Assembly (NCBI GenBank): GCA_048937405.1
Contig: JBHLNF010000020.1
Coordinates: 1-45,047, forward strand
Source of the DNA: Promethearchaeota archaeon
GTDB taxonomy: Archaea > Asgardarchaeota > Lokiarchaeia > Sigyniarchaeales > SOKP01
DNA: 45,047 nt
Reading direction: 5' to 3'
Shown here: positions 4,674-35,306 of the stretch, piece after piece
How the letters are laid out: every line of letters starts with the position of its first letter
Position numbering within the stretch: the stretch's first letter is position 1
The notes under the pieces: generated by a model
What the model was told of the DNA's origin: nothing
What the model saw: the letters and a program-made list of their open reading frames with translations, nothing else
Database searches by the model: none
Translations under genes and position numbers: made by a program

Positions 4674-5000
4674 GACGCTTGAGATTTGTACCCGCCCTTC
4701 TGTACTAGAACTCGTCACCAAGTTCAGCTGGAGCATCAAACTAAGCGGCCTACCTAAAGCTAGCTCCAAGTACTTTATCGCTTTCATTTGGCCTTGCACC
4801 AAGGTATTAGCTCGTTCCAACCATTCCTTCCAACAATTTCTCTGGCTTATATCCAAGTCATTAATATATGTTGAAAGGCAGTGTCGTTTCAGTTGCTAAA
4901 TTACGGTTCTCACCGTAGTAGTTATCTACACCTTGCTTGGAGAGTGGGGCGAGGTTCCTCAGCGAGTCAAGCTCACCGTCAGCTCCATATCTCACTCGTC
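4674..5000 (-). ncRNA. rnpB: RNase P RNA, archaeal type A
   Basis: On the minus strand: CR-I GAGGAACCTCGCCC pairs with CR-V ACAGAAGGGCGGG (P4). P1 GACGAGTGAGAT/ATCTCAAGCGTC; P2 TGGAGC/GCTCCA; P8 GTAG-ATAA-CTAC; P9 TACGGT-GAGA-ACCGTA; CR-II GCAACTGAAACG; P12 CCTTTCAACA/TGTTGGAAGG; GTGCAAGGCCAAAT...GGTAGGCC (P15/L15); P6 CTCCAAG/CTTGGAG; P19 GAACTTG/CGAGTTC. GC-rich island. Confidence 0.95.
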
Positions 5001-13447: not shown

Positions 13448-14371
13448 ATGGAAAACTATAAAATTTCTGATTTTATTGAGGATTTCCTAATAGCCAAAGA
13501 AGTTGAAGAGGGTTGTGCTTCCTCAACAATTAAAGCTTATCAATATGATCTTCAAAAATTCATTGAACTTATTGGAGATCTCCAAATTAATTCCTCTCTA
13601 CTACGCCAAAGAATTCGTCTATTCTTGAAAAAATTGAATGAGATGAACTATACAAAAAAAGGGATAGGGAGGAAAATTGCATCTTTGCGTTCTTATTTTA
13701 AATTTCTGGAATTAAATGAATTCATTTCAAAGAACCCTATGAGTACAATTAAAACTCCTAAAATTAAGCTTGAAGAAAGCTTACCTAAGTTTTTAAGAAT
13801 TTCTGATATGGAGGTAATTTTTACTAAGTTGAAAGACCGACATTTATTCAACTCTCGAAAGAGTGAACGATATTATATGATTGTTAGACTTCTATATTCT
13901 ACAATGGCACGAGTAAGTGAGTTATGTAATATAAAAATAAGAGATATTGACTTTGAAAGAGGTTATATTCAACTCCGTGGGAAAGGAAATAAGGAAAGAA
14001 TTGTACCAGTTGATCAAAAAACGTTGGAAATTTTTAAAGAATATCTTAAAAATAGAATAATTTATGATTCTGAAGAGTATTTATTAGTAAATACGAGAAA
14101 TCAAAAACTAAATCCACGAGTTGTACAAGCAGATATTAAAACAATTAAAGAAAAATGTGGATTTTCTGAGTCTAAAATAATCACACCTCATGTATTTAGG
14201 CATACTGGTGCAACTCATTTAAGGAGATCCGGGATGGACATAAGTGAATTACAAGATATTTTGGGGCATTCTAGTCCAAATACAACACGGATTTATGCCA
14301 AAAATGATATAACTAAGTTAAAAGAATCATACTCTCAGATGCATCCTTTAAACAATATTGATAAATTATAG
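13448..14371 (+). CDS. xerA: XerA-like site-specific tyrosine recombinase
   Basis: TIKAYQYDL N-terminal domain, NPM...TPK...LPKFL, catalytic R(ARVSE), K(GKGNKER), HxxR (PHVFRH), LGH, Y (TTRIY). Confidence 0.88.
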   Translation: MENYKISDFIEDFLIAKEVEEGCASSTIKAYQYDLQKFIELIGDLQINSSLLRQRIRLFLKKLNEMNYTKKGIGRKIASLRSYFKFLELNEFISKNPMSTIKTPKIKLEESLPKFLRISDMEVIFTKLKDRHLFNSRKSERYYMIVRLLYSTMARVSELCNIKIRDIDFERGYIQLRGKGNKERIVPVDQKTLEIFKEYLKNRIIYDSEEYLLVNTRNQKLNPRVVQADIKTIKEKCGFSESKIITPHVFRHTGATHLRRSGMDISELQDILGHSSPNTTRIYAKNDITKLKESYSQMHPLNNIDKL

Positions 14372-14423
14372 GTATTAATCTAATTTCTTAGTTAATAAAT
14401 TTAATAAAAAAAAAACATAATTT

Positions 14424-14451
14424 AATAAGTATAAGAAAATTTATACTTTAA
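14424..14451. other. Candidate dif-like recombination site (11-6-11)
   Basis: AATAAGTATAA-GAAAAT-TTATACTTTAA: perfect 8-bp inner inverted repeat around a 6-bp spacer with an ATAA-N6-TTAT core, 52 nt after the xerA stop. Confidence 0.35.
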
Positions 14452-14506
14452 TCGTTCTTTTATTACGTATACATCAAAATAAAATAGTGAGTCTTCTCGA
14501 TTTATA

Positions 14507-15700
14507 ATGGATGAGGATGAATTTAGAAAACAATTTCGGAAAAAATCAGTTTTTCGACAAGCAAGCTCTCTTGATTTAAGTTATGTACCTGAAAAATTAT
14601 TTTGTCGTGATGAATCTCTTAAGACTTTAATATTTAATTATCGACGTATTTTAGAGGAAGATCTGCAACCTTCCATAAACTGTTTGATATTGGGAAAGGG
14701 AGGTGTTGGAAAAACTTGTACAGCTCGATTTTTTGGGAGAACTTTCAGAACAATTGCAATTGAAAATGATGTTAATTTATTTATTGAATATTTTAATTGC
14801 ATTAATTTTCGCTCCAAAAGTAAGATAATTAGAGAATTACTTGCTAAATATCAACATGGGAGTGGAAGAGGTTTCAGTGATGATGAGGCATTAAAACTAA
14901 TTCTCTCACAACTCATTCGGGAACAAGGATATATGTTATTGGTTATAGACGAGATCCATCTTTTAAAACCAGATGAAGTATTAGCATTTCTAGATATCGC
15001 TGAGACTTTTGGCCATCAAAATGCAAAATTATCATTACTTTTAATTTCTAGAAGTAAAGATTGGATGAAAATTGAAAATGAGAGAATTTTAAGTAGATTA
15101 AATGAAAAAATACAGCTTAAACCTTATAACTTCGATGAGTCAATGCAAATATTAAAATATCGAAGTGATCTTGCTTTTAAAGAAGATGTTATCAATATGG
15201 AGTTATTGATAATGATTTCTCAAATTGTGGTTGCTCATAAAAATATGAGACATGGTATTGAAATATTAAGAAAAAGTGGGTCCTATTGTGATAAAGAAGG
15301 ATTAAATACTATAACAGCAGATATAATTAGAGAAGCTTCTAATGATGTATATCCTACTTTTAGAAATGATATTGTTGATGAATTAAAAGATCAAGAACTT
15401 TTAGCTTTATATGGTATTGTAAGATCTTTAATTAGTACAGATGAACCTTACACGTTAGTTGATGATGCGTTTGAGGATTATAATGCGATTTGTGAAAATT
15501 ATTCAATAGAACCACATGTTAAAATGAGTTTTAGGAAATATGTTCGCCAACTTACCCAATTAAAAATAGTTTCTTCTAAAACTGTAAGAATTGAGGATGC
15601 TACACGTGGAAGACATTTAGAGATTACTCTTTTAGATATCCCGGCTAAGAAGCTAGCTGAGTTATTAGAAGATATCTTAGAAAAAAAATTTCGGACATAA
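14507..15700 (+). CDS. cdc6: Orc1/Cdc6 family replication initiator AAA+ ATPase
   Basis: LDLSYVPEKLFCR, Walker A GKGGVGKT, YFNC, Walker B LVIDEIH, ERILSRL Arg finger, C-terminal winged helix ending ...RGR. Confidence 0.92.
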   Translation: MDEDEFRKQFRKKSVFRQASSLDLSYVPEKLFCRDESLKTLIFNYRRILEEDLQPSINCLILGKGGVGKTCTARFFGRTFRTIAIENDVNLFIEYFNCINFRSKSKIIRELLAKYQHGSGRGFSDDEALKLILSQLIREQGYMLLVIDEIHLLKPDEVLAFLDIAETFGHQNAKLSLLLISRSKDWMKIENERILSRLNEKIQLKPYNFDESMQILKYRSDLAFKEDVINMELLIMISQIVVAHKNMRHGIEILRKSGSYCDKEGLNTITADIIREASNDVYPTFRNDIVDELKDQELLALYGIVRSLISTDEPYTLVDDAFEDYNAICENYSIEPHVKMSFRKYVRQLTQLKIVSSKTVRIEDATRGRHLEITLLDIPAKKLAELLEDILEKKFRT

Positions 15701-17590: not shown

Positions 17591-18487
17591 TTAATCTGAT
17601 GTTTGAATATTTTCTTTTGAGTAATTTTCTAAATAAGTAATCCTTTTTTCTAAGATTGTCATAGTTTCTATAATATTATTGAGAACTTTGTTAGTTTCTC
17701 TAATCTCATATTGTAGATCTCCAAGTTGTTGTAATATAAATAACATAACTTTAGATTCTTTAACTGGAATAGTCAACCAATTAATTATATTTTGTATAAA
17801 TTTTCTGTTATCATATGAATTTAACCCAATTCTGGGATTTGACGTAAAAATATCAACATCTCCAATTGCTACTACTTTTCCTTGTCCAAATTGAGTATAT
17901 GCAGCAATAATTTGCTGTTTCTCATTTTCTTTAGTCCATTTATCAGACATATTGTTATAGATTTCGGCCCATACAGAATTTTTACCTGTTTGTAATAATG
18001 GTTTTACTTCTCTATTTAAAAGTAAAGAACATGCACCTCCAATTACCATTTCTCTTAAATTATTTGTATTTTGGTTTTTAAAAAAATCTTGAATATGTAA
18101 TATACTTGAACAATTTTGGTTATCATCATTCATTTCTTTAATTAGATTTTTCTGAAAAAAGATGCCAAACTTTCCAGCAATATCATTGAGATTAGTTTTT
18201 TGAAGAGAATCCGAACCATATTCACTCAAGAGTAATAGTCCACTCCCACTCCTTACATGATCAACAATATATTTTATTTCCAAACTAGAAAAGAAATCAT
18301 CAATCGGATTTCCAATGATTAGTAGATCTATATTTTCTAAGATTTCCTTAGAAATTAGACCACTTTCATTTATTTTAACCTTTAGATCTAATTTTTTAAG
18401 GATATCCAAAAATTCCTTGAATTCTTCATCGTTGGTATTTAGCATTTCGTTGTGTGCTAAATCAATAAGAACAGTTTTTTTAAGCAT
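17591..18487 (-). CDS. GIFT-domain (GldG/IFT52/DUF4350-like) protein with C-terminal coiled coil
   Basis: VLIDLAHNE, DLLIIGNP, FS..EI..I..HV..G.GLLLL, GKVVAIGD.DIF, N..FI.NII.WL; heptad tail LQYEIRETNKVLNNIIETMTILEKRITYLE. Confidence 0.7.
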   Translation of the reverse strand: MLKKTVLIDLAHNEMLNTNDEEFKEFLDILKKLDLKVKINESGLISKEILENIDLLIIGNPIDDFFSSLEIKYIVDHVRSGSGLLLLSEYGSDSLQKTNLNDIAGKFGIFFQKNLIKEMNDDNQNCSSILHIQDFFKNQNTNNLREMVIGGACSLLLNREVKPLLQTGKNSVWAEIYNNMSDKWTKENEKQQIIAAYTQFGQGKVVAIGDVDIFTSNPRIGLNSYDNRKFIQNIINWLTIPVKESKVMLFILQQLGDLQYEIRETNKVLNNIIETMTILEKRITYLENYSKENIQTSD

Positions 18488-22469: not shown

Positions 22470-25400
22470 TTATCTTAAGATTTCTTGGCGAAGTCTATTA
22501 AGAAATCCATCAAAATCGGTTCTATCATATTTAACATTTAACATAGTAATCAATAGAATCGGTACATCCTCTTCATCCTCATATACAGGGATAATCTTCA
22601 TCTTATCTTTTTTAACTAATTGGTACGCAGCTTGCCATTCACCTTCAACAGCTTTAGATTCCTTAGAGTGTTGAGTACAAAATAGCACAAAAGTATTGCA
22701 TACTCTTAATGTCTTTTCCATATAGTCCACAATGTTTTGTCCACTATCTTTAAGATAGTAATATACTCTATTAATTTCTGGAGTGTTTTCTAAAACTTGG
22801 GCAATTTTATCTATTTGAAACCGATCTTCGTCAGCTGTAGAATAACTGAGAAAGACACTGACTTCTTTTTCCTTTCTTCTTTTAGGTGTAGTCTCCTTTT
22901 CTACCTTCACTTCACTTGGTAACACAGGTGTGCTTGGTACTTCTCGCTGCACCTCCTGATAAAGCCCAGCTTCAATTTCCTTGCACTTTTCAACTTTATC
23001 ATTAGCTCTATTAAAAATAGGATAGAAATCATATTGATCTGCAGTATCTTTTATTTTCCCTAACTGTCTATAAGCTAATTGAATTTTTCTTTCATTTATA
23101 AGATTGTCTACTTGGTGTAATTTCTCTTCAAGCTTTATCTTTATTTTCTCCTTTTTTTTATCACTTATTTCTTTTTCCTTCTTGTCAGGAGAAGAGATTT
23201 TCTTCCTTAAAACCACAGCACCTGCTGCTCCAGCAACGGCAATAACAGCAACAATAATTATTATTAAAATAAGCTCGAAAGGAATTCCTTCTTTATCGGA
23301 TATGAAGGTGTTATCTGTTATGATATTTCCTGTACTGGAACCCTGAATTTCAATATCATGTGTATTACCCGAAAAATAATTTTGCGTGATGCGATTATAA
23401 CTGGAATCTTGGAGATAAATGCCATAATAATTGTTATTTATTGAATTCCCTTTGATAGTATTATTGTTGCTAGTGTCCAACCAAATTCCATATTCATTAT
23501 TATTAATTGTCTCATCATTATCATTAATAGTAATATTATAACTATCGTAAAGCCTAATACCACCTAGACCATTTGAGTTTAATGTATTTTTAGTTATAAT
23601 TATATTTTGGCAGGCATAAACTACAATCCCATTGCCATTATTAGAACTGCAATTACTATTAGCAATTAATCCACTAGATACATTTTGCAATTTTATACCA
23701 CCATCATTAACGGTATCAACAGAATTAATAAAACTTGAACTATCAACAGTAAAACTTTTGTATGAATTTCGAATGGTTAAACAACTACTTGAAGCTTGTC
23801 CATCTATTTGGATAGAATCGATAATATATGGGTCACTTACAGTTCCAGAGCCACTACACCATGGGAAAGTAGCCACCGCTGCTGACCAATTATAATCCCC
23901 TCCCCCTGTATCATCAATTATTATCGGTGATTCTTCCCATAATCCAGTGCTTTCATTATAAAAACTTTCATCATAAACTTGAATATTGAGTGTATTTGAT
24001 AATTTTTCACCACTTTCGTTGTATGCTGCGACTATAAAATAATAATCTCCATTTTCTAAATCCGATATGGTAAAAGGAGAATTTACATTTTCATATGAAT
24101 TTAAACGGTATCTTTTGCTTATATATGAAATATCTCTATCAAAAATAAATACAGAATAATTATCTACTCCAGTTGAATCCGACCAAGTTAGATTAAAAGT
24201 TCCATCAGTATCAATAAAAACATCAGTAGCAACAGAAACATCAGCATTAGTATTTAAAGAAAAAACACCAGGTATATCCTGTGGTGGCTTAAGATAATGA
24301 ACCCCCCAATATGGAAAGGAAACTGAACCCGTTGCAATATTATTCGGATAATAACCAGGGTTACCTGGAACAGTAACATAGGAGGGAATAACCACTTTAT
24401 TTCCATCTAATTGCCATTGACAAAAACAACTATATGAATAGGGCCATCCTTCCCATAAAGCATGAGATTTTGTAAAAGCAATGTTCGCACTTGCAGCAAT
24501 AAAAGGATTAGTTCGATTAAAATCTTCTAAAGCTATAACAGTGTCATTTGCATCAAAAATTTTAATAGTTTCACTTATATTTGCTATTATATTAACCGCA
24601 TCATAGGAACCAATTCCAGTATAATATGGATCTATATTATATGTTGAATAAAAACTATCCCAGAATGGAATAGACTTTGAGGTTTTATAATTTCTATGTT
24701 GAGATTGCATTATAATTTCATATTGACATGTTCCTTCAGTGTCATCCCAAAAGGAGTCTATTTGGGAGAATAAATCAATACCTGCTAGGATACATTGTGG
24801 TTTAATATTTCTATATGTTTTTAACATCGTTATTGAATCATTACCATTAACTAAAGGAATTGTTAATTGCGTTTCTGAAGCATCAATTGTATCCCAAATA
24901 GTTTCAAACTCTGATTCAGAGGTACCTAAAGGAAAAGAAATTATTTGTTTGTTAGGAACTCCTAATACAGCATAAAGGGCATTTGCTAAATTTGTTGACC
25001 AAGGTATATCTTCTCGAAGTATCGTCAGATTTGTAATACCAAGATTACTACAGAGCCATGCTATTTGATTAATCACTATAATACCAATTGATGTTGCATT
25101 TAGCGGCATTATATTAAAGAAATATTTATACCTTTCATAAGTAGAAGTATCATTAATTTTTAAACAAAAATCTTCACTTGTAGTTCCAGTGGATAAAAAA
25201 GGTATTTGTGCATCCAAAATAGGTTCTAGATAATATGTTAATGATTTATTTTCAAAACCCCCTATAATGTAATGTGGATCATATGATAACATTTTATTTG
25301 CGGCAGTAATACCCTTAGATATGCTCAGAGTTGAGTTTAATTCATCTGTATCTTCTGCTACAAGACCTATATAGTAAGTTGTACTGTTAATCAAAATTCC

Positions 25401-25691
25401 TCCGGCTTCATTAATTTCTCTTGCTGCTAAAAGTGCTCCTTTCCAAGCATGATCACCAGTGATATGCTCCAAATCGTCAAGTAACCCGATTCTTATTGAT
25501 TCATTTAAGAGAGGGGGATCTGTAATTCCAGGAAATGTATAATTTCCCACAATAACATCGGATACTTCCGGATTAAGAATAAGAGCATTACTTTTTTCTC
25601 TGGTATTAGGATAAAACCAAGTTAAGCCTGCTAAAAACTGAATAGAAAATAGAATTACTAAATATAATGTAATTACTTTTTTATTTTTCAT
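22470..25691 (-). CDS. Single-pass receptor-like protein: signal - periplasmic-binding (Venus flytrap) domain - FN3-like - right-handed beta-helix - TM - TIR
   Basis: IRIGLL...GALLAAREINEAGGI (LivJ/ANF-receptor type I PBP motif); LTWSDSTGVDNYSV...GDYYFIVAAYN (FN3-like); NosD-like NNxxGIxL repeats; TM at aa ~803-828 followed by RKK; TIR motifs VFLSYS (aa 946), FVLFCT..S..S..VEGEW (E1018), IIPVY. SD AGGAGG at 25701-25706. Confidence 0.9.
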   Translation of the reverse strand: MKNKKVITLYLVILFSIQFLAGLTWFYPNTREKSNALILNPEVSDVIVGNYTFPGITDPPLLNESIRIGLLDDLEHITGDHAWKGALLAAREINEAGGILINSTTYYIGLVAEDTDELNSTLSISKGITAANKMLSYDPHYIIGGFENKSLTYYLEPILDAQIPFLSTGTTSEDFCLKINDTSTYERYKYFFNIMPLNATSIGIIVINQIAWLCSNLGITNLTILREDIPWSTNLANALYAVLGVPNKQIISFPLGTSESEFETIWDTIDASETQLTIPLVNGNDSITMLKTYRNIKPQCILAGIDLFSQIDSFWDDTEGTCQYEIIMQSQHRNYKTSKSIPFWDSFYSTYNIDPYYTGIGSYDAVNIIANISETIKIFDANDTVIALEDFNRTNPFIAASANIAFTKSHALWEGWPYSYSCFCQWQLDGNKVVIPSYVTVPGNPGYYPNNIATGSVSFPYWGVHYLKPPQDIPGVFSLNTNADVSVATDVFIDTDGTFNLTWSDSTGVDNYSVFIFDRDISYISKRYRLNSYENVNSPFTISDLENGDYYFIVAAYNESGEKLSNTLNIQVYDESFYNESTGLWEESPIIIDDTGGGDYNWSAAVATFPWCSGSGTVSDPYIIDSIQIDGQASSSCLTIRNSYKSFTVDSSSFINSVDTVNDGGIKLQNVSSGLIANSNCSSNNGNGIVVYACQNIIITKNTLNSNGLGGIRLYDSYNITINDNDETINNNEYGIWLDTSNNNTIKGNSINNNYYGIYLQDSSYNRITQNYFSGNTHDIEIQGSSTGNIITDNTFISDKEGIPFELILIIIIVAVIAVAGAAGAVVLRKKISSPDKKEKEISDKKKEKIKIKLEEKLHQVDNLINERKIQLAYRQLGKIKDTADQYDFYPIFNRANDKVEKCKEIEAGLYQEVQREVPSTPVLPSEVKVEKETTPKRRKEKEVSVFLSYSTADEDRFQIDKIAQVLENTPEINRVYYYLKDSGQNIVDYMEKTLRVCNTFVLFCTQHSKESKAVEGEWQAAYQLVKKDKMKIIPVYEDEEDVPILLITMLNVKYDRTDFDGFLNRLRQEILR

Positions 25692-25850: not shown

Positions 25851-26002
25851 TCTTAAGATTTCCTGACGGAGTTTGCTTATAAAACCATTAAAATTTACTT
25901 TATCATATCTGACATTTAGCATCGGAATTAATAGAATTGAGAATCTTCTTCATGTTCATAGACGGGGATAATGTTCATTGTACCTATTTTAACTAACTGA
26001 TA
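25851..26002 (-). pseudogene. Frameshifted remnant of the 3' end of a paralogous TIR-domain gene
   Basis: Reads YQLVKIGTMNIIPVYEHEED-(1-nt deletion)-ILLIPMLNVRYDKVNFNGFISKLRQEILR. By manual alignment 35 of 51 residues are identical to the C-terminus of the 1073-aa protein; the stop position reads TAT instead of TAA. Confidence 0.88.
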
Positions 26003-27300: not shown

Positions 27301-28644
27301 TTAATTAAGTGTTGCTCCGCAAATTGGACAAGTGCTGACTAATTTATTACATGTAGCTCCACAGATTTTGCATAATTTTATTGAACTAGTTCCTTTTCTT
27401 CGTGGTGGTTTTAAGGAGGTTATTGATATTGGTTGTTCTTTCGATTCAGTGGCTTCAGATACTTCTGGAATCGTTGTTTCTCTTGATTTTTTAGTTCCAA
27501 TAGTAATTTCTTTTCCAAAAAAGCCACCAACTCTTACTTTTTTTGGTTGATCACCCGTGGAAGGTTCTGGTTCTTCTAAACTTACTTCTGACTCTTCTTC
27601 TATTATTTCATTCTGAAGTTCAGATTCTTCTGTATATTGTTCTTCTTCATAATCTGTGATTACTGTTTCTTCATAACCTGGTTTTTCCATGTCTATTTCG
27701 GGTATATTTTCTTCTAATTCTTCTTCTAAATCCTCTTCATAAACCATATTAACAAATTCTTCATCAAGTTTTAATAGCGCATCGCAATGCGGGCATCTGA
27801 ATATATGTTTAAAGCCAATATTTTTAACAAGTGCATATTTTGCCGCACAACAATTATGAAATTTTGTATTACAATTATAGCATTTATGTATCTCATCAGA
27901 ATGAGCCTCACAAATAGGACATAACTCTTGTTCACAAATATTACACAATTCTTGATCCTCAGTAGATAAACTAATGAGATCTACCGCTAATCGTTCATAG
28001 AAAATCTTATCTTGACCTAAAACCTGATCAGGTTCTTCAGATTTTATAACTTTAAATTCTTTTTTATTTTGAATTAATGATCCTAAAATATTTTGAAGAA
28101 GTTTTTCATTTGGACAATAGAATGTTCCTCCATGAGTTTCACTAGAAATAACTTTCAGTTTAACATCGTCTTCATAAAATTTCTCCTCTCCAACTCGAAT
28201 AATATCAATAAATGCAGAGAATTTTTTTGCTTTAATTAATAAATCATAAAGAGCATTATAATAATCTTCAGATAATCGGCTAGGAGTGTCTGAAATTATA
28301 ATTACACGGTAATTTTTTCTAATATCTCGACTTTTTCTGAATATATATGCAAGAATTTCATATAAACCATTTTCTAAATAACTATGTTCATCTTCTCTTG
28401 TTTCCCAAGCTTCTTCTATATTTTTCAAAACACTATCTACATCTTTAAGATCATATACATTGATAGGATTTTCATTCTTTTGAAATAATAAAATTCCATA
28501 TGAAGCAAGTGCGTTAAATTTGTCTTTTTCCTTGATAAAATGACTTATAGCTTTCATTAGTGACTTCTTCTTTAGAAAATCTGAAATTAAATCTAAATAA
28601 AAGATAAATTCTTCTGAATTTATTGTATTTGCTCGAGGTAACAT
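27301..28644 (-). CDS. vWA-like domain + RING/PHD-like Cys/His finger + C-terminal zinc ribbon protein (paralogue A)
   Basis: FIFYLD, RVIIISD, IDIIRVG, LKVISSETHGGTFY (vWA); CNIC-CPIC-CYNC-FHNCC-CPHC; acidic linker; CKIC..CPIC. Confidence 0.75.
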   Translation of the reverse strand: MLPRANTINSEEFIFYLDLISDFLKKKSLMKAISHFIKEKDKFNALASYGILLFQKNENPINVYDLKDVDSVLKNIEEAWETREDEHSYLENGLYEILAYIFRKSRDIRKNYRVIIISDTPSRLSEDYYNALYDLLIKAKKFSAFIDIIRVGEEKFYEDDVKLKVISSETHGGTFYCPNEKLLQNILGSLIQNKKEFKVIKSEEPDQVLGQDKIFYERLAVDLISLSTEDQELCNICEQELCPICEAHSDEIHKCYNCNTKFHNCCAAKYALVKNIGFKHIFRCPHCDALLKLDEEFVNMVYEEDLEEELEENIPEIDMEKPGYEETVITDYEEEQYTEESELQNEIIEEESEVSLEEPEPSTGDQPKKVRVGGFFGKEITIGTKKSRETTIPEVSEATESKEQPISITSLKPPRRKGTSSIKLCKICGATCNKLVSTCPICGATLN

Positions 28645-28809: not shown

Positions 28810-30138
28810 TTATAATTTATATCCACAAATAGAACACACTTTATGTTGAGAATCATTTTGACTTCCACATTGAGGACATATAAAAAAACTTGGTTTTCTT
28901 TTTGAATTAATATTTTGTTGTAGGATGACTTTTTCAGATTTGATTATATTATTTCTATCTCTTATAGTTTTGGTTTTAAAGGATGTTTGTGAACCCCTTT
29001 CATAAATGATCTTATCACCTTTCTTTTTAACTGTATATACTTTTCCAAAAAATCCCCCAATCCTTATAGTTTTACCTGGTCCTCCTTTAGATGCACTTAT
29101 TGGTTTTTCTGGAGGTTTTTCTATTTTTCTTTCTAAAGTTGGTTTAGGAATTGGTTTTTCTTTTTTAGTTACTAATTTTTGTAGATCTGCAAGTATTTCT
29201 TTTTCCATATATTCTTTTACGGTATTTACTTCTACTTCGCCCGACAATTCAATTATCTCATCTTCATCAATTTTTAAAAGAACATCACATGAAGGACAAC
29301 GTAGAATATTTGGAATTCCAATGTTATGATTTATTGTATAATTTGTAACGCAGCAATTATGAAAACTTTTATTACAATCTTCACAGATTAAAGGCATATC
29401 ATGAACATCCATACAAACAGGGCAAATTTCTTCATTACAAAAATAACACACTAAATTCATTTCATCAGATCTTTTCAATGATTTAGCTAAGTGATAGTAA
29501 AAGGTATAATCTTCTTTTGTTATTTCGATAAGATCAGGACGATCTGCAAAAGTAGTTACATACTGTTTACTTTTTACTAGTTTTTTAATAACATTAGAGA
29601 ATTCTTTTTTATCCTTAATATAAAAGATACCCCCCTTTGTATCACTAGCAAGCATGTTTAATTTTACATCATCACTAAAAAACCGTTGATTCTCTGCTGA
29701 TACTCTTATTATGTCTATAAAAGTCGGAAAGTTTTTGATTTTTGAAACCAGATTAAACAATGCCTCTTGATAGTCATCAGATAGATCGGAAGGAGTATCT
29801 GTAATAACAATAATTCTGTAAAATTTTGATTTTTTTCTTACAGTTTCAGCAATGTAAGAAAAAATGTAAAATAAGCCGTTTTCAAAAAAACTCTGTCCTT
29901 TAGGGCGATTTTTCCAATTTTCTTCAATAGAATTGGTAATAATTCCAGAATCTTTTTTATCAGTTATAAAGATTGGATTTCCTTCTTCTTGGAAAATAAG
30001 AAGTGAATAATGACCTTTCAAATTTGCTTTATTTTTTTCCTCTATATAATATTTGATTGTTTTGATGATTTCCTTTTTTTTTAGCAAATCCTTAGTTAAA
30101 TCCAAATAAAAATACACATCTTCATGTGAAATATTCAT
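28810..30138 (-). CDS. vWA-like domain + RING/PHD-like Cys/His finger + C-terminal zinc ribbon protein (paralogue B)
   Basis: VYFYLD, RIIVITD, IDIIRVS, LNMLASDTKGGIFY; CYFC-CPVC-CEDC-FHNCC-CPSC; basic Pro-rich linker; CPQC..CSIC; colinear with paralogue A. Confidence 0.75.
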   Translation of the reverse strand: MNISHEDVYFYLDLTKDLLKKKEIIKTIKYYIEEKNKANLKGHYSLLIFQEEGNPIFITDKKDSGIITNSIEENWKNRPKGQSFFENGLFYIFSYIAETVRKKSKFYRIIVITDTPSDLSDDYQEALFNLVSKIKNFPTFIDIIRVSAENQRFFSDDVKLNMLASDTKGGIFYIKDKKEFSNVIKKLVKSKQYVTTFADRPDLIEITKEDYTFYYHLAKSLKRSDEMNLVCYFCNEEICPVCMDVHDMPLICEDCNKSFHNCCVTNYTINHNIGIPNILRCPSCDVLLKIDEDEIIELSGEVEVNTVKEYMEKEILADLQKLVTKKEKPIPKPTLERKIEKPPEKPISASKGGPGKTIRIGGFFGKVYTVKKKGDKIIYERGSQTSFKTKTIRDRNNIIKSEKVILQQNINSKRKPSFFICPQCGSQNDSQHKVCSICGYKL

Positions 30139-33314: not shown

Positions 33315-34016
33315 ATGTTTTGTCAGAACTGTGGTGAAGAAATTAAAGATTCCTCACAAAATTTCTGTGAAAAATGTGGGTCACCAATACCAGATAGTGT
33401 CAGACAGAGTGTAACTACTAGCTCACCAACATCAACAGCACCATCAAGTCAACAATCTTATCATCAGCCGGGGAGTTTATTTGATATTAATCGAAATTAT
33501 TATATCTTGAAAGAAAAATATTGGGATTGGGGTTCTGGAGATATTTTAGATGAAAATAACCAGATCATAGGGCGAATGAAAAGAGTAATCCTAAGCATTA
33601 GACGTAGAGTTGAATTACGAGAAGTTGATGGAACTGTATCAGCTACTATTCATGCTAAAATTGTATCTGCACGTGGAGCTCAAGATTTAAAAGACCCTCA
33701 GGGGAATTTAATAGCCCGAATTAAGAAGAAGATCCTTTCATTTTTCAGACCTGTATTTTATCTTGAAGATCCTGAAGGTAATCAATGGTTCCGTGCTCAA
33801 GGAAAATTCATGGGATTTAGTTTTAAGGTTTATGATGTAACTACTGGAAATGTTGTCGCAGAAATTGAAAAAGCAGATAAATGGAGAGATCTCTTTCTCG
33901 GAGGTCTTTTAGATTTTAAAGATACTTATGCTCTAAGAATACTTGATAATGAAACAGATAGAAGAATTCTTGTGGGATTTGTACTTTCAATTGATAATGT
34001 TCTTCATGATTATTAA
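33315..34016 (+). CDS. Zinc-ribbon + LURP-one-related/scramblase (tubby C-terminal-like) protein
   Basis: MFCQNCG...FCEKCG; S/T/P linker; YILKEK, IKKKILS, VAEIEK..W, DTYALRI, terminal helix ILVGFVLSID. Confidence 0.8.
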   Translation: MFCQNCGEEIKDSSQNFCEKCGSPIPDSVRQSVTTSSPTSTAPSSQQSYHQPGSLFDINRNYYILKEKYWDWGSGDILDENNQIIGRMKRVILSIRRRVELREVDGTVSATIHAKIVSARGAQDLKDPQGNLIARIKKKILSFFRPVFYLEDPEGNQWFRAQGKFMGFSFKVYDVTTGNVVAEIEKADKWRDLFLGGLLDFKDTYALRILDNETDRRILVGFVLSIDNVLHDY

Positions 34017-34220: not shown

Positions 34221-35306
34221 ATGACTGAATATGAATCATTTATGGTATATGAACTTGATGATTCTGGAGAAAAAATGCGATTAGATCTTGAACAAGAACA
34301 CCTTGAAGCAAATTTACATCCAGAACAAGTCCTTGTAATTATTAGGGAAGATTTAAGAAGAATTTTTATTTGGAAAGGTCCAAAATCACCAGTTCGAAAA
34401 CGATTTATTAGTTCAAGGGTAGCTCAAACACTTCAAGAAGAGTTAATGAAAGATGCGAGATACCATCGCTGTAAAATTGTGTCTGTAGATGCAGGAGATG
34501 AACCTGCAGAATTCTTAAATGCTTTTAAGTTGCAATCAATGGAAGTTACTGAACGTTTAGCAGACATGCGATACGTTCGAAATATTGAACGTGAAAGAGG
34601 TGTTGAAGCTACCATTATGGATGTTTCTCCTAAAACTACTGAATCACCACCGGAGGAAGAATATTTTTCACCAGTATTACAAGATACTAGTAATGAAGTA
34701 GTTGTATCATCATTTTCAGCAACTTCTCCAAAACCAAGTATTAACTCTCAAAAACCATCAATAACAAAACCGACAAGAGGGTCTAAATCCATAGAACTAT
34801 CAAAAGAACATCAAAAAACAATTAAAGAAAAAATTCTTAAAGAAAAAGTTTCTGATGATTATAAAAGATTGAATTTAATATTGGGACATACTCTTTATGC
34901 TGCGGTTTCTAAAATTGCGACTGTTTTTGGAAAAGAAGTCGAAGAAACTGATTGGGAACCTGTTAAGAACGTTCCAAAAAGAATGATTGAATTAGATAAT
35001 CATATATTAAGAGTATACTTTAACGAAGAAAAAGGAATTGTTGAAGCTGTTGAAATTTTAGAAAAAAAAACAACTCCACAAAAAACTTTACAAAAATCTG
35101 CTGTAAAAAAATCAACTACTCAAAAAGAAACAATTGATTTTAATTCAATGACGGTGAAAGATCTCAAAACTTATGCTGATGAAAAGAATATAGATTTACC
35201 TGCAAATGCAAGGAAATCTGATATAATTGAAGTTTTGGAGAAATCCACAGAGAAAAAATCCAGTACTCATAGGCAATTACCTAAAATTCCTAGTAATAAT
35301 GATTAG
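34221..35306 (+). CDS. Gelsolin-like domain protein with C-terminal SAP/Rho_N-like helix-extension-helix module
   Basis: LHPEQVLVI...IFIWKGPKSP..KRF...VDAGDEPAEFLNAF (gelsolin repeat); FNSMTVKDLKTYADEKNIDLPANARKSDIIEVL from aa 307. Confidence 0.8.
   Translation: MTEYESFMVYELDDSGEKMRLDLEQEHLEANLHPEQVLVIIREDLRRIFIWKGPKSPVRKRFISSRVAQTLQEELMKDARYHRCKIVSVDAGDEPAEFLNAFKLQSMEVTERLADMRYVRNIERERGVEATIMDVSPKTTESPPEEEYFSPVLQDTSNEVVVSSFSATSPKPSINSQKPSITKPTRGSKSIELSKEHQKTIKEKILKEKVSDDYKRLNLILGHTLYAAVSKIATVFGKEVEETDWEPVKNVPKRMIELDNHILRVYFNEEKGIVEAVEILEKKTTPQKTLQKSAVKKSTTQKETIDFNSMTVKDLKTYADEKNIDLPANARKSDIIEVLEKSTEKKSSTHRQLPKIPSNND

Follow-up and report, generated by a model that had tools for sequence, protein, structure and literature searches.

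A 45,047-nucleotide stretch of DNA from a Promethearchaeota archaeon (Asgardarchaeota; GenBank assembly GCA_048937405.1, contig JBHLNF010000020.1, positions 1 to 45,047 of the forward strand; hereafter the window, which is AT-rich, with a GC content of about 0.29) carries on its minus strand a gene of 1073 codons plus stop (22470..25691, from the open reading frame list and its translation), whose product combines a Venus flytrap head, a beta-helix, a single transmembrane (TM) helix and a C-terminal TIR domain. About 19 orthologues have the same architecture. The gene belongs to a lineage-expanded Asgard family in which one conserved TIR tail is joined to interchangeable sensor heads. A preliminary description of the window had pointed to a one-component TM-TIR receptor in an Asgard archaeon; such a receptor is indeed present, but it is one member of this expanded family, whose usual head is the beta-helix and not the flytrap.

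The domain order proposed there (signal, type I periplasmic-binding protein (PBP) domain, FN3, beta-helix, TM helix, linker and TIR) agrees with the results of Pfam, hydropathy analysis and AlphaFold2 (AF2), and four families score above their curated Pfam cut-offs: Peripla_BP_6, NosD, Beta_helix and TIR_2. The protein begins with a signal peptide or an uncleaved signal anchor (aa 1-27; 25611..25691, on the minus strand like all features of the gene given below), in which KNKK precedes a hydrophobic core with a Kyte-Doolittle peak at aa 5-25. It is followed by the type I PBP (Venus flytrap) domain of the HAAT/LivJ class (aa 40-480; 24252..25574) and by one FN3-like domain (aa ~484-575; 23967..24242). 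The fn3 match is weak in the receptor itself (aa 495-565, E 0.064); several relatives, orthologues included, list fn3 (PF00041) in their precomputed Pfam annotation, and the receptor segment aligns to more than one place in orthologue P0002, which points to extra FN3 copies there. The membrane-proximal part of the ectodomain is a capped right-handed parallel beta-helix of the NosD/CASH type (aa ~590-800; 23292..23924), matched by NosD (aa 655-800, E 6.3e-22), by Beta_helix (aa 640-796, E 2.7e-17) and, in the NCBIfam scan, by parallel beta-helix repeats (para_beta_helix). The Asn-rich beta-helix described earlier is therefore present, and its start, cap included, can be refined to near aa 590. 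Similarly, the single TM helix stands, but its position, first given as aa ~803-828, is corrected by the hydropathy scan and the flanking residues to L807-L828 (23208..23273), with GIPFE before it and RKK after it. Beyond the membrane lie a juxtamembrane three-helix module (aa 844-915; 22947..23162), a disordered Pro/Lys-rich tether (aa 919-938; 22878..22937; pLDDT <50 at residues 89-108 of the modelled fragment) and the TIR domain (aa 944-1073; 22473..22862), which runs to the protein terminus, ...EILR.

The TIR domain was recognized by Pfam, PADLOC, AF2 and Foldseek alike. TIR_2, of the STIR clan, matches aa 946-1052 with 54.1 bits (cut-off 28; E 2.7e-14), and the PADLOC profile ThsB gives a modest match (E 3.8e-6). 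In the AF2 model of the cytoplasmic region (aa 831-1073, alignment of 126 relatives, pLDDT 87.8), three long helices at aa 844-915 and the disordered stretch at 919-938 precede a five-stranded TIR at 944-1073, whose strands (944-949, 973-978, 1000-1005, 1032-1037 and a short fifth) have pLDDT values mostly >90 and indicate a flavodoxin-like fold. The three helices (fragment residues 14-36, 40-56 and 60-85) have a block-mean pLDDT >90 over most of their length, and positions K849, L854, L864, I865, I870, A873 and I892 of this module are kept in the orthologues. Foldseek returned 65 PDB matches to the cytoplasmic model at E<=1e-3, and the best 50 of the 65 are all TIR-domain proteins; the matches include SPARTA TIR-APAZ, Hydra TRR-2, MAL, MyD88, SARM1, TLR2, TLR10 and AbTir. 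Judged by its sequence and predicted fold, the receptor TIR is of the prokaryotic TIR_2/ThsB-like type. It also carries the signature of its subfamily, FLSYS...NIVEYME...LFCS.NS.KS.AV..EWQ.A.Q...IPVYE...LNVK...EILR, placed at the protein terminus.

The position of the catalytic Glu in TIR NADases is occupied by E1018 (codon 22638..22640, translated in the context AVEGEWQAA), which the AF2 model places in the helix between strands C and D. This residue does not vary among the 19 orthologues or among 126 members of the family, membrane-bound and soluble alike (alignments A1 and A2, the latter comprising the 126 members, which are 34-75% identical to the receptor TIR). Through the family profile it aligns with the Glu of SDWCWDEL in Cat1 and of SEWVKKEI in 9m0n, a TIR-TPR protein in the PDB. 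The family consensus around it is S-x-A-V-x-(D/G)-E-W, with Ala1014 of the receptor at the position of the Trp in the WxxxE motif. The C-terminal TIR with E1018 claimed in the preliminary description is thus upheld by the TIR_2 match, the modelled fold and the invariance of the Glu in 126 relatives. In SARM1, plant TIRs, AbTir and ThsB, the active site is formed between associated TIR domains and uses this Glu. A Glu between strands C and D has been reported to be critical for the NADase activity of TIR domains (PMC7075850).

At the other end of the protein, Peripla_BP_6 matches aa 66-392 with 40.5 bits against a cut-off of 31.7 (E 3.6e-10). The AF2 model of aa 40-480, built on an alignment of 65 relatives, is predicted with high confidence (pLDDT 94.1, pTM 0.92), and its best Foldseek match is LivJ (4gnr, E 6.5e-18, TM-score 0.82 by target), with further matches to Leu/Ile/Val-, urea- and aromatic-acid-binding proteins as well as to the GABA-B and mGluR flytraps. 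The family profile of the flytrap, run against the PDB, retrieved LivJ, UrtA and Leu-binding proteins, the same entries as the fold search. Single-sequence phmmer searches of the PDB with the TIR and the flytrap as queries gave nothing useful; the profiles and AF2 models were informative instead. The nearest relatives of the flytrap are 'ABC transporter substrate-binding proteins' of 600-1000 aa without a TIR domain. Most of these TIR-less relatives (P0024-P0066) terminate in IPGY(D/N), a hydrophobic helix and KK or RK, that is, in a PGF-CTERM-like tail, and the GIPFE before the TM helix of the receptor is similar to their PGY motif. Three others (P0050, P0062 and P0066) have a cytoplasmic Cys-rich Zn-ribbon tail of ~105 aa in place of the PGY anchor. 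Archaeosortase cleavage at GIPFE was considered and found no support, since this genome, whose completeness is rated at 100%, gave no match to the Exosortase_EpsH family. A direct link between the receptor and an ABC transporter was rejected. A profile search of the genome found no LivH/M permease near the receptor gene, and the sole pair of BPD_transp_2 permeases lies on another contig (C7:652842-654693), beside a separate 470-aa PBP. The receptor gene is therefore not part of a transporter operon, and the lack of a nearby permease favours a role in sensing over one in transport.

These features predict a single-pass type-I membrane protein (N-out, C-in), with the flytrap, FN3 and beta-helix outside the cell and the three-helix module, tether and TIR inside. 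Hydropathy reveals the N-terminal hydrophobic segment (aa 5-25) and the one internal helix, L807-L828; whether the former acts as a signal peptide or as an uncleaved anchor, the domains that follow it are predicted to be outside and the TIR inside. On its TIR side the TM helix is directly followed by RKK, and nearly all orthologues keep K830. NxS/T sequons number 21 in the ectodomain, against 13.8 expected from shuffled sequences (P ~0.016). The cytoplasmic part has none against 0.87 expected, a zero that is not significant on its own; it is sequon-free in 17 of 18 orthologues as well. Because RKK comes after the TM helix and the sequons are confined to its N-terminal side, the TIR is most simply placed in the cytoplasm. 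The out/in topology first put forward from the positive-inside rule and the sequon bias is sustained, with the TIR predicted on the opposite side of the membrane from the ectodomain.

Family and paralogues of the TIR tail

An exhaustive search with the cytoplasmic region recovered 668 cluster representatives, of which 426 have E<=1e-10. The best 147 divide into 49 type-I receptors, 23 TM proteins with a short or fragmentary outside part, 6 multi-TM proteins and 69 without a predicted TM helix, the last being soluble proteins or fragments. Among the 49 type-I members, the ectodomain contains a NosD/beta-helix in 38 and SBP_bac_5 in 4, with a few PKD, propeller and Ig domains. Since the beta-helix is the usual ectodomain of the family, the flytrap appears to be a speciality of this orthologue group. 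Some members (P0080, P0081, P0082 and P0084) contain 3-6 tandem TIR domains per protein, some of them behind a multi-TM N-terminus.

The distribution of the family is narrow. A scan of species-representative genomes with a family-specific motif, which is blind to divergent relatives elsewhere, found 52 loci; all those with a name are Asgard, mostly Promethearchaeota, the rest are labelled 'uncultured archaeon', and none is bacterial. Within the phylum, 36 of 201 genomes encode the family, and 27 of these are among the 40 genomes of the window's own family-level group; even within the genus it is patchy (4 of 10 members). In the TIR tree, the receptor TIR falls into a well-supported clade with eight PBP orthologues. 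The tree requires at least 5 changes of the PBP label and at least 9 of the membrane/soluble label, which indicates that heads and tails have recombined repeatedly.

The genome that contains the window (4.47 Mb, 29 contigs) has 13 TIR_2 matches. Five are type-I receptors: the flytrap gene, a 1638-aa beta-helix protein, a 1099-aa SBP_bac_5 protein, a 1028-aa propeller/fn3/beta-helix protein and a 1575-aa beta-helix protein. The other eight are soluble, and six of them have the same terminal TIR subfamily as the five receptors; LRR-TIR, WD40-TIR and coiled-coil-TIR types are represented. According to Pfam and a check of TM helices, the paralogous receptors share the C-terminal TIR subfamily, the type-I plan and often the same beta-helix, and differ in having SBP_bac_5, beta-helix-only or propeller heads and, in some, a PCI-like winged helix before the TIR. 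The flytrap member is distinguished from them by its LivJ-type flytrap and its shorter three-helix linker. Seven large SIR2_2-domain open reading frames (715-1891 aa) are also present in the genome, at C11:16507-16887, C11:31714-32061 and five other places, and two of them flank the coiled-coil-TIR gene on the same contig (C11, 22755-25787).

One paralogous receptor has a neighbour that could read a nucleotide signal. The single LSDAT_prok SLOG open reading frame of the genome encodes an 857-aa RelA_SpoT-TPR-SLOG protein (C13:190514-193087; L034:1465-4035, minus strand) and lies 2.5 kb from the 1638-aa receptor (C13:195642-200558), with a 526-aa DUF4407-like coiled-coil protein between them. 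Homologues of the SLOG protein occur in 11 of 201 genomes, and in seven of these they adjoin family TIR genes or lie within ~10 kb of them. It is plausible that this RelA/SpoT-TPR-SLOG protein is the best candidate for a receiver, which would have to act in trans, nothing like it being found beside the flytrap gene. On one contig (C38) of another genome (G171), four TIR genes of the family lie within 10 kb, close to two homologues of the SLOG protein.

The receptor locus

The combination of Peripla_BP_6, NosD/Beta_helix and TIR_2 is shared by about 19 proteins, whose source assemblies (NCBI, JGI, ENA and Logan) are independent, and the named carriers of the flytrap-TIR architecture are Promethearchaeota metagenome-assembled genomes. 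An assembly chimera is accordingly not the explanation, as the same architecture recurs in about 19 independent proteins, two of which have the same synteny; the fusion reported at the outset is real. In the two orthologous loci, one flank contains PHO4, PhoU_div, DUF2284, adenylosuccinate synthetase and an IFT52-GIFT protein, and the other contains 447-aa and 442-aa Zn-ribbon genes. The receptor gene is vertically inherited. Its neighbours are PHO4, PhoU_div and EamA, with an aminotransferase and DAP dehydrogenase in the orthologues, and the only PADLOC match among the neighbours in the window is a marginal MTase_II (E 5.4e-4) in a 361-aa protein ~9 kb away. A defence island was rejected on these grounds, and the housekeeping surroundings noted in the preliminary description were found again.

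Upstream of the receptor gene, 160 nt from its start, is the relic of a second TIR gene (25851..26002, minus strand; tblastn E 2.9e-11). It comprises the last ~51 codons, frameshifted, and is 69-75% identical to aa 1023-1073 of the receptor and closer still to the tail of P0069; it may go back to a tandem duplicate that has since been lost, or to a recombination event long ago.

Several other features of the window deserve mention. Two genes on the minus strand (27301-28644 and 28810-30138) encode proteins of ~445 aa each, with a weak vWA match, Cys-rich fingers and a terminal Zn-ribbon; both orthologous loci keep the pair next to the receptor, with 70-78% identity, a linkage that may be simple synteny. 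The archaeal RNase P RNA is encoded at 4676-4998 (minus strand; Rfam RF00373, 135 bits), and a Xer-type tyrosine recombinase followed by an Orc1/Cdc6 gene at 13448-15700 (plus strand); a replication origin may be nearby. The IFT52 GIFT-domain protein (17591-18487, minus strand) has a counterpart in an orthologous locus (L025:16015-17471) that is followed by an Arf/Ras-family small GTPase; both proteins are eukaryote-like and typical of Asgard genomes. On the plus strand, the gene at 34221-35306 contains a weak gelsolin-repeat-like segment (E 0.0044, which does not reach the Pfam cut-off) and, after it, a HeH/Rho_N-like tail; beside it lies a gene for a Zn-ribbon protein with a LURP-one/scramblase-like domain (33315-34016). 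The Asgard origin of the window is deduced from named relatives, from the archaeal RNase P RNA and Orc1/Cdc6, and from the gelsolin-like and IFT52-GIFT-like proteins.

Proposed mechanism and alternatives

By analogy with known TIR enzymes, the receptor may be a ligand-controlled TIR enzyme and signalling sensor in which NAD+ is cleaved when TIR domains associate, a proposal that we regard as an even call. An external ligand would alter the association of receptors within the membrane. One candidate ligand is a small molecule, most plausibly from the amino-acid/amide class, that binds in the cleft of the flytrap; another is a glycan or surface bound by the beta-helix. The tethered TIR domains would thereby be brought together to form a composite active site, and NAD+ cleavage would either lower NAD+ or yield an ADP-ribose-derived signal that a cytosolic receiver could read, a candidate being the RelA/SpoT-TPR-SLOG protein encoded beside a paralogous receptor. 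As the gene is vertically inherited among housekeeping genes, the receptor would probably serve as a standing environmental, nutrient or partner sensor and not as a mobile defence cassette. To judge from cultured Loki-type archaea, the organism probably lives on amino acids and peptides; given this mode of life and heads of the amino-acid- or peptide-binding type, the receptors may link nutrient or partner sensing to NAD+-based signalling.

Several observations weigh against this proposal. The closest paralogues of the flytrap are surface-anchored binding proteins without a signalling tail. No effector or receiver gene adjoins the receptor or its orthologues in the loci examined, and a search with the SLOG protein as single query found no match in many TIR-rich relatives, which makes a role as universal receiver unlikely. 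The family also lacks the WxxxE Trp seen in Cat1 and 9m0n, having Ala or Val at its position and a Trp after the Glu instead; the WxxxE Trp is common, though not universal, in catalytic TIRs. The catalytic-position Glu is in any case necessary but not sufficient for NADase activity, and its frequency in TIR domains does not track reported activity (PMC7075850). Finally, the receptor is the fastest-evolving protein in the syntenic block, with 52-57% identity against 62-88% for its neighbours, which also fits a biotic arms race.

Such an arms race is the subject of the alternative that survives best. Here the receptor would act as a sentinel at the cell surface, directed at viruses or other forms of biotic attack, in the manner of Thoeris and leading to an abortive or dormant state: a virus or foreign cell would engage the beta-helix or the binding domain, the TIR domains would cluster, and depletion of NAD+ or synthesis of an alarm nucleotide would follow. 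A nutrient or partner sensor would use the same chemistry; what differs is the trigger and the purpose. The TIR does resemble ThsB-type sensors, the family is lineage-expanded and patchy (4/10 in the genus, 27/40 in the family-level group), its heads and tails are shuffled in the TIR tree, a decayed TIR duplicate adjoins the receptor, and the receptor evolves faster than every syntenic neighbour. A paralogue, moreover, has a SLOG protein encoded next to it, an arrangement also seen in Thoeris types I and III (system types as in bioRxiv 10.64898/2025.12.03.692087). On the other hand, there is no defence island, the marginal MTase_II being the only PADLOC match, the synteny is stable across species, no effector is adjacent, and the heads of both the flytrap member and the SBP_bac_5 paralogue are nutrient-binding folds. 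We consider the sentinel role unlikely, though well worth keeping in mind.

Signalling might also proceed through a scaffold, as in animal TLR/IL-1R, where a ligand-driven dimer would expose a TIR surface and recruit the soluble TIR paralogues (LRR-TIR, WD40-TIR and small WH-TIR) with no NAD+ chemistry. The eight soluble TIR_2 proteins of the genome, six of them with the TIR subfamily of the receptors, would suit this role, the TIR fold matches MAL, MyD88 and TLR2 about as well as it does enzymatic TIRs, and the absence of the usual Trp of WxxxE also speaks for it. Yet the invariance of the Glu in 126 sequences, both membrane-bound and soluble, is hard to explain without catalysis, and no death-domain or kinase partner turned up, although none was searched for; the scaffold model seems improbable to us. 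A membrane-anchored substrate-binding or adhesion protein with no signalling function, whose TIR would have a housekeeping or structural task such as the decapping of NAD-RNA at the membrane or attachment to some structure in the cytoplasm, would suit the PGY-TM-KK-anchored surface binding proteins of 600-1000 aa that are the closest relatives of the head, the similar GIPFE of the receptor and the reported ability of TIR domains to remove NAD caps from RNA (PMC10937652), but it is quite improbable, as selection has kept head, TM helix, linker and TIR together in about 19 orthologues and alongside dozens of other head types, and the gene does not lie beside the only LivH/M permease pair.

Significance and comparison with known systems

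TIR domains are common to bacterial, plant and animal immunity, and to our knowledge the ectodomain-TM-TIR arrangement has until now been regarded as an innovation of animals. In the literature searched, whose coverage excluded most subscription journals, we found no description of an Asgard TM-TIR receptor family; the surveys of Asgard defence mention only a small 2TM-1TM-TIR system (PMC11291487). What is new here is the flytrap member with its structure models, the survey of ectodomains, the distribution in Asgard and 'uncultured archaeon' metagenome-assembled genomes, the shuffling of heads and tails, and the test of the SLOG lead. A wider scheme, which we find possible though on balance doubtful, is that Loki-type Asgard archaea run a network of transmembrane TIR receptors, in which swapped ectodomains of the flytrap, peptide-binding, beta-helix and propeller types would report different external cues via one conserved catalytic TIR tail to soluble TIR paralogues and a SLOG receiver. 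If true, this would be the first case of TIR signalling from the cell surface in a prokaryote, and an analogue in archaea of Toll-like receptor (TLR) signalling. The conserved, expanded family itself, with the same plan in the closest prokaryotic relatives of eukaryotes, indicates that coupling of the cell surface to TIR domains arose outside animals. It is also a simple model in which to study how a TIR domain is activated by an event outside the cell. Its flytrap member is tractable in this respect: the LivJ-class head can be screened for ligands and the tail keeps the catalytic Glu, so that standard methods will serve to assay ligand binding as well as NAD+ chemistry.

The animal TLR/IL-1R proteins are similar to the receptor in having a signal peptide, a large ectodomain, one TM helix and a cytoplasmic TIR, with varied ectodomains placed on one kind of TIR, and the TIR model superposes on TLR2, TLR10, MAL, MyD88 and Hydra TRR-2 in Foldseek. 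They differ in that the receptor ectodomain consists of flytrap, FN3 and beta-helix by Pfam, instead of the LRR of TLRs or the Ig of IL-1R, and its TIR is TIR_2/ThsB-like and keeps the Glu at the catalytic position. The term 'Toll-like' used in the preliminary description therefore holds for the topology, but neither for the ectodomain nor for the type of TIR. No death-domain adaptor of the MyD88 type is known for the receptor; soluble TIR paralogues exist, but no death domain was seen in them, though no search for death folds was made. As the family is found mainly in one family-level group among the 201 Asgard genomes, analogy to TLRs is favoured over ancestry; that the Asgard network is a relative of the eukaryotic TIR receptor system is much less likely than that it is an analogue, and we consider such kinship highly improbable.

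The prokaryotic enzymatic TIRs, namely Thoeris ThsB, AbTir, BtpA, SPARTA TIR-APAZ and Cat1, share with the receptor a TIR_2-type sequence and the catalytic-position Glu, and they provide its best structural matches. Unlike the receptor, they are soluble and usually encoded in defence islands with an adjacent effector, whereas the receptor is a membrane protein with an ectodomain of ~780 aa, encoded among housekeeping genes with no effector nearby, and it lacks the Trp of WxxxE. Thoeris itself pairs ThsB with an adjacent ThsA-type effector; the flytrap gene has no such partner, and only a paralogue has a SLOG neighbour. In SARM1 and the plant TIR-NLRs, a sensor domain controls the oligomerization of a Glu-dependent TIR, which is the logic proposed here, and SARM1 TIRs are among the fold matches. 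These proteins, however, are cytosolic, with ARM/SAM or NB-ARC-LRR sensors and no membrane.

The head of the receptor invites a different set of comparisons. The natriuretic peptide receptors, class C G-protein-coupled receptors, BvgS-type kinases and PBP-fused sensors all couple an extracellular sensor of the PBP fold through the membrane, and the GABA-B and mGlu flytraps match the model; yet in the receptor the output is a TIR domain in place of a guanylate cyclase, a seven-transmembrane domain or a histidine kinase, and a beta-helix is inserted between the flytrap and the membrane. Similarly, the HAAT binding proteins LivJ/LivK and UrtA are the best profile and fold matches for aa 40-480, but the receptor gene is not in a LivHMGF-type operon, and 600 further residues, including the TM helix and the TIR domain, are fused to its flytrap.

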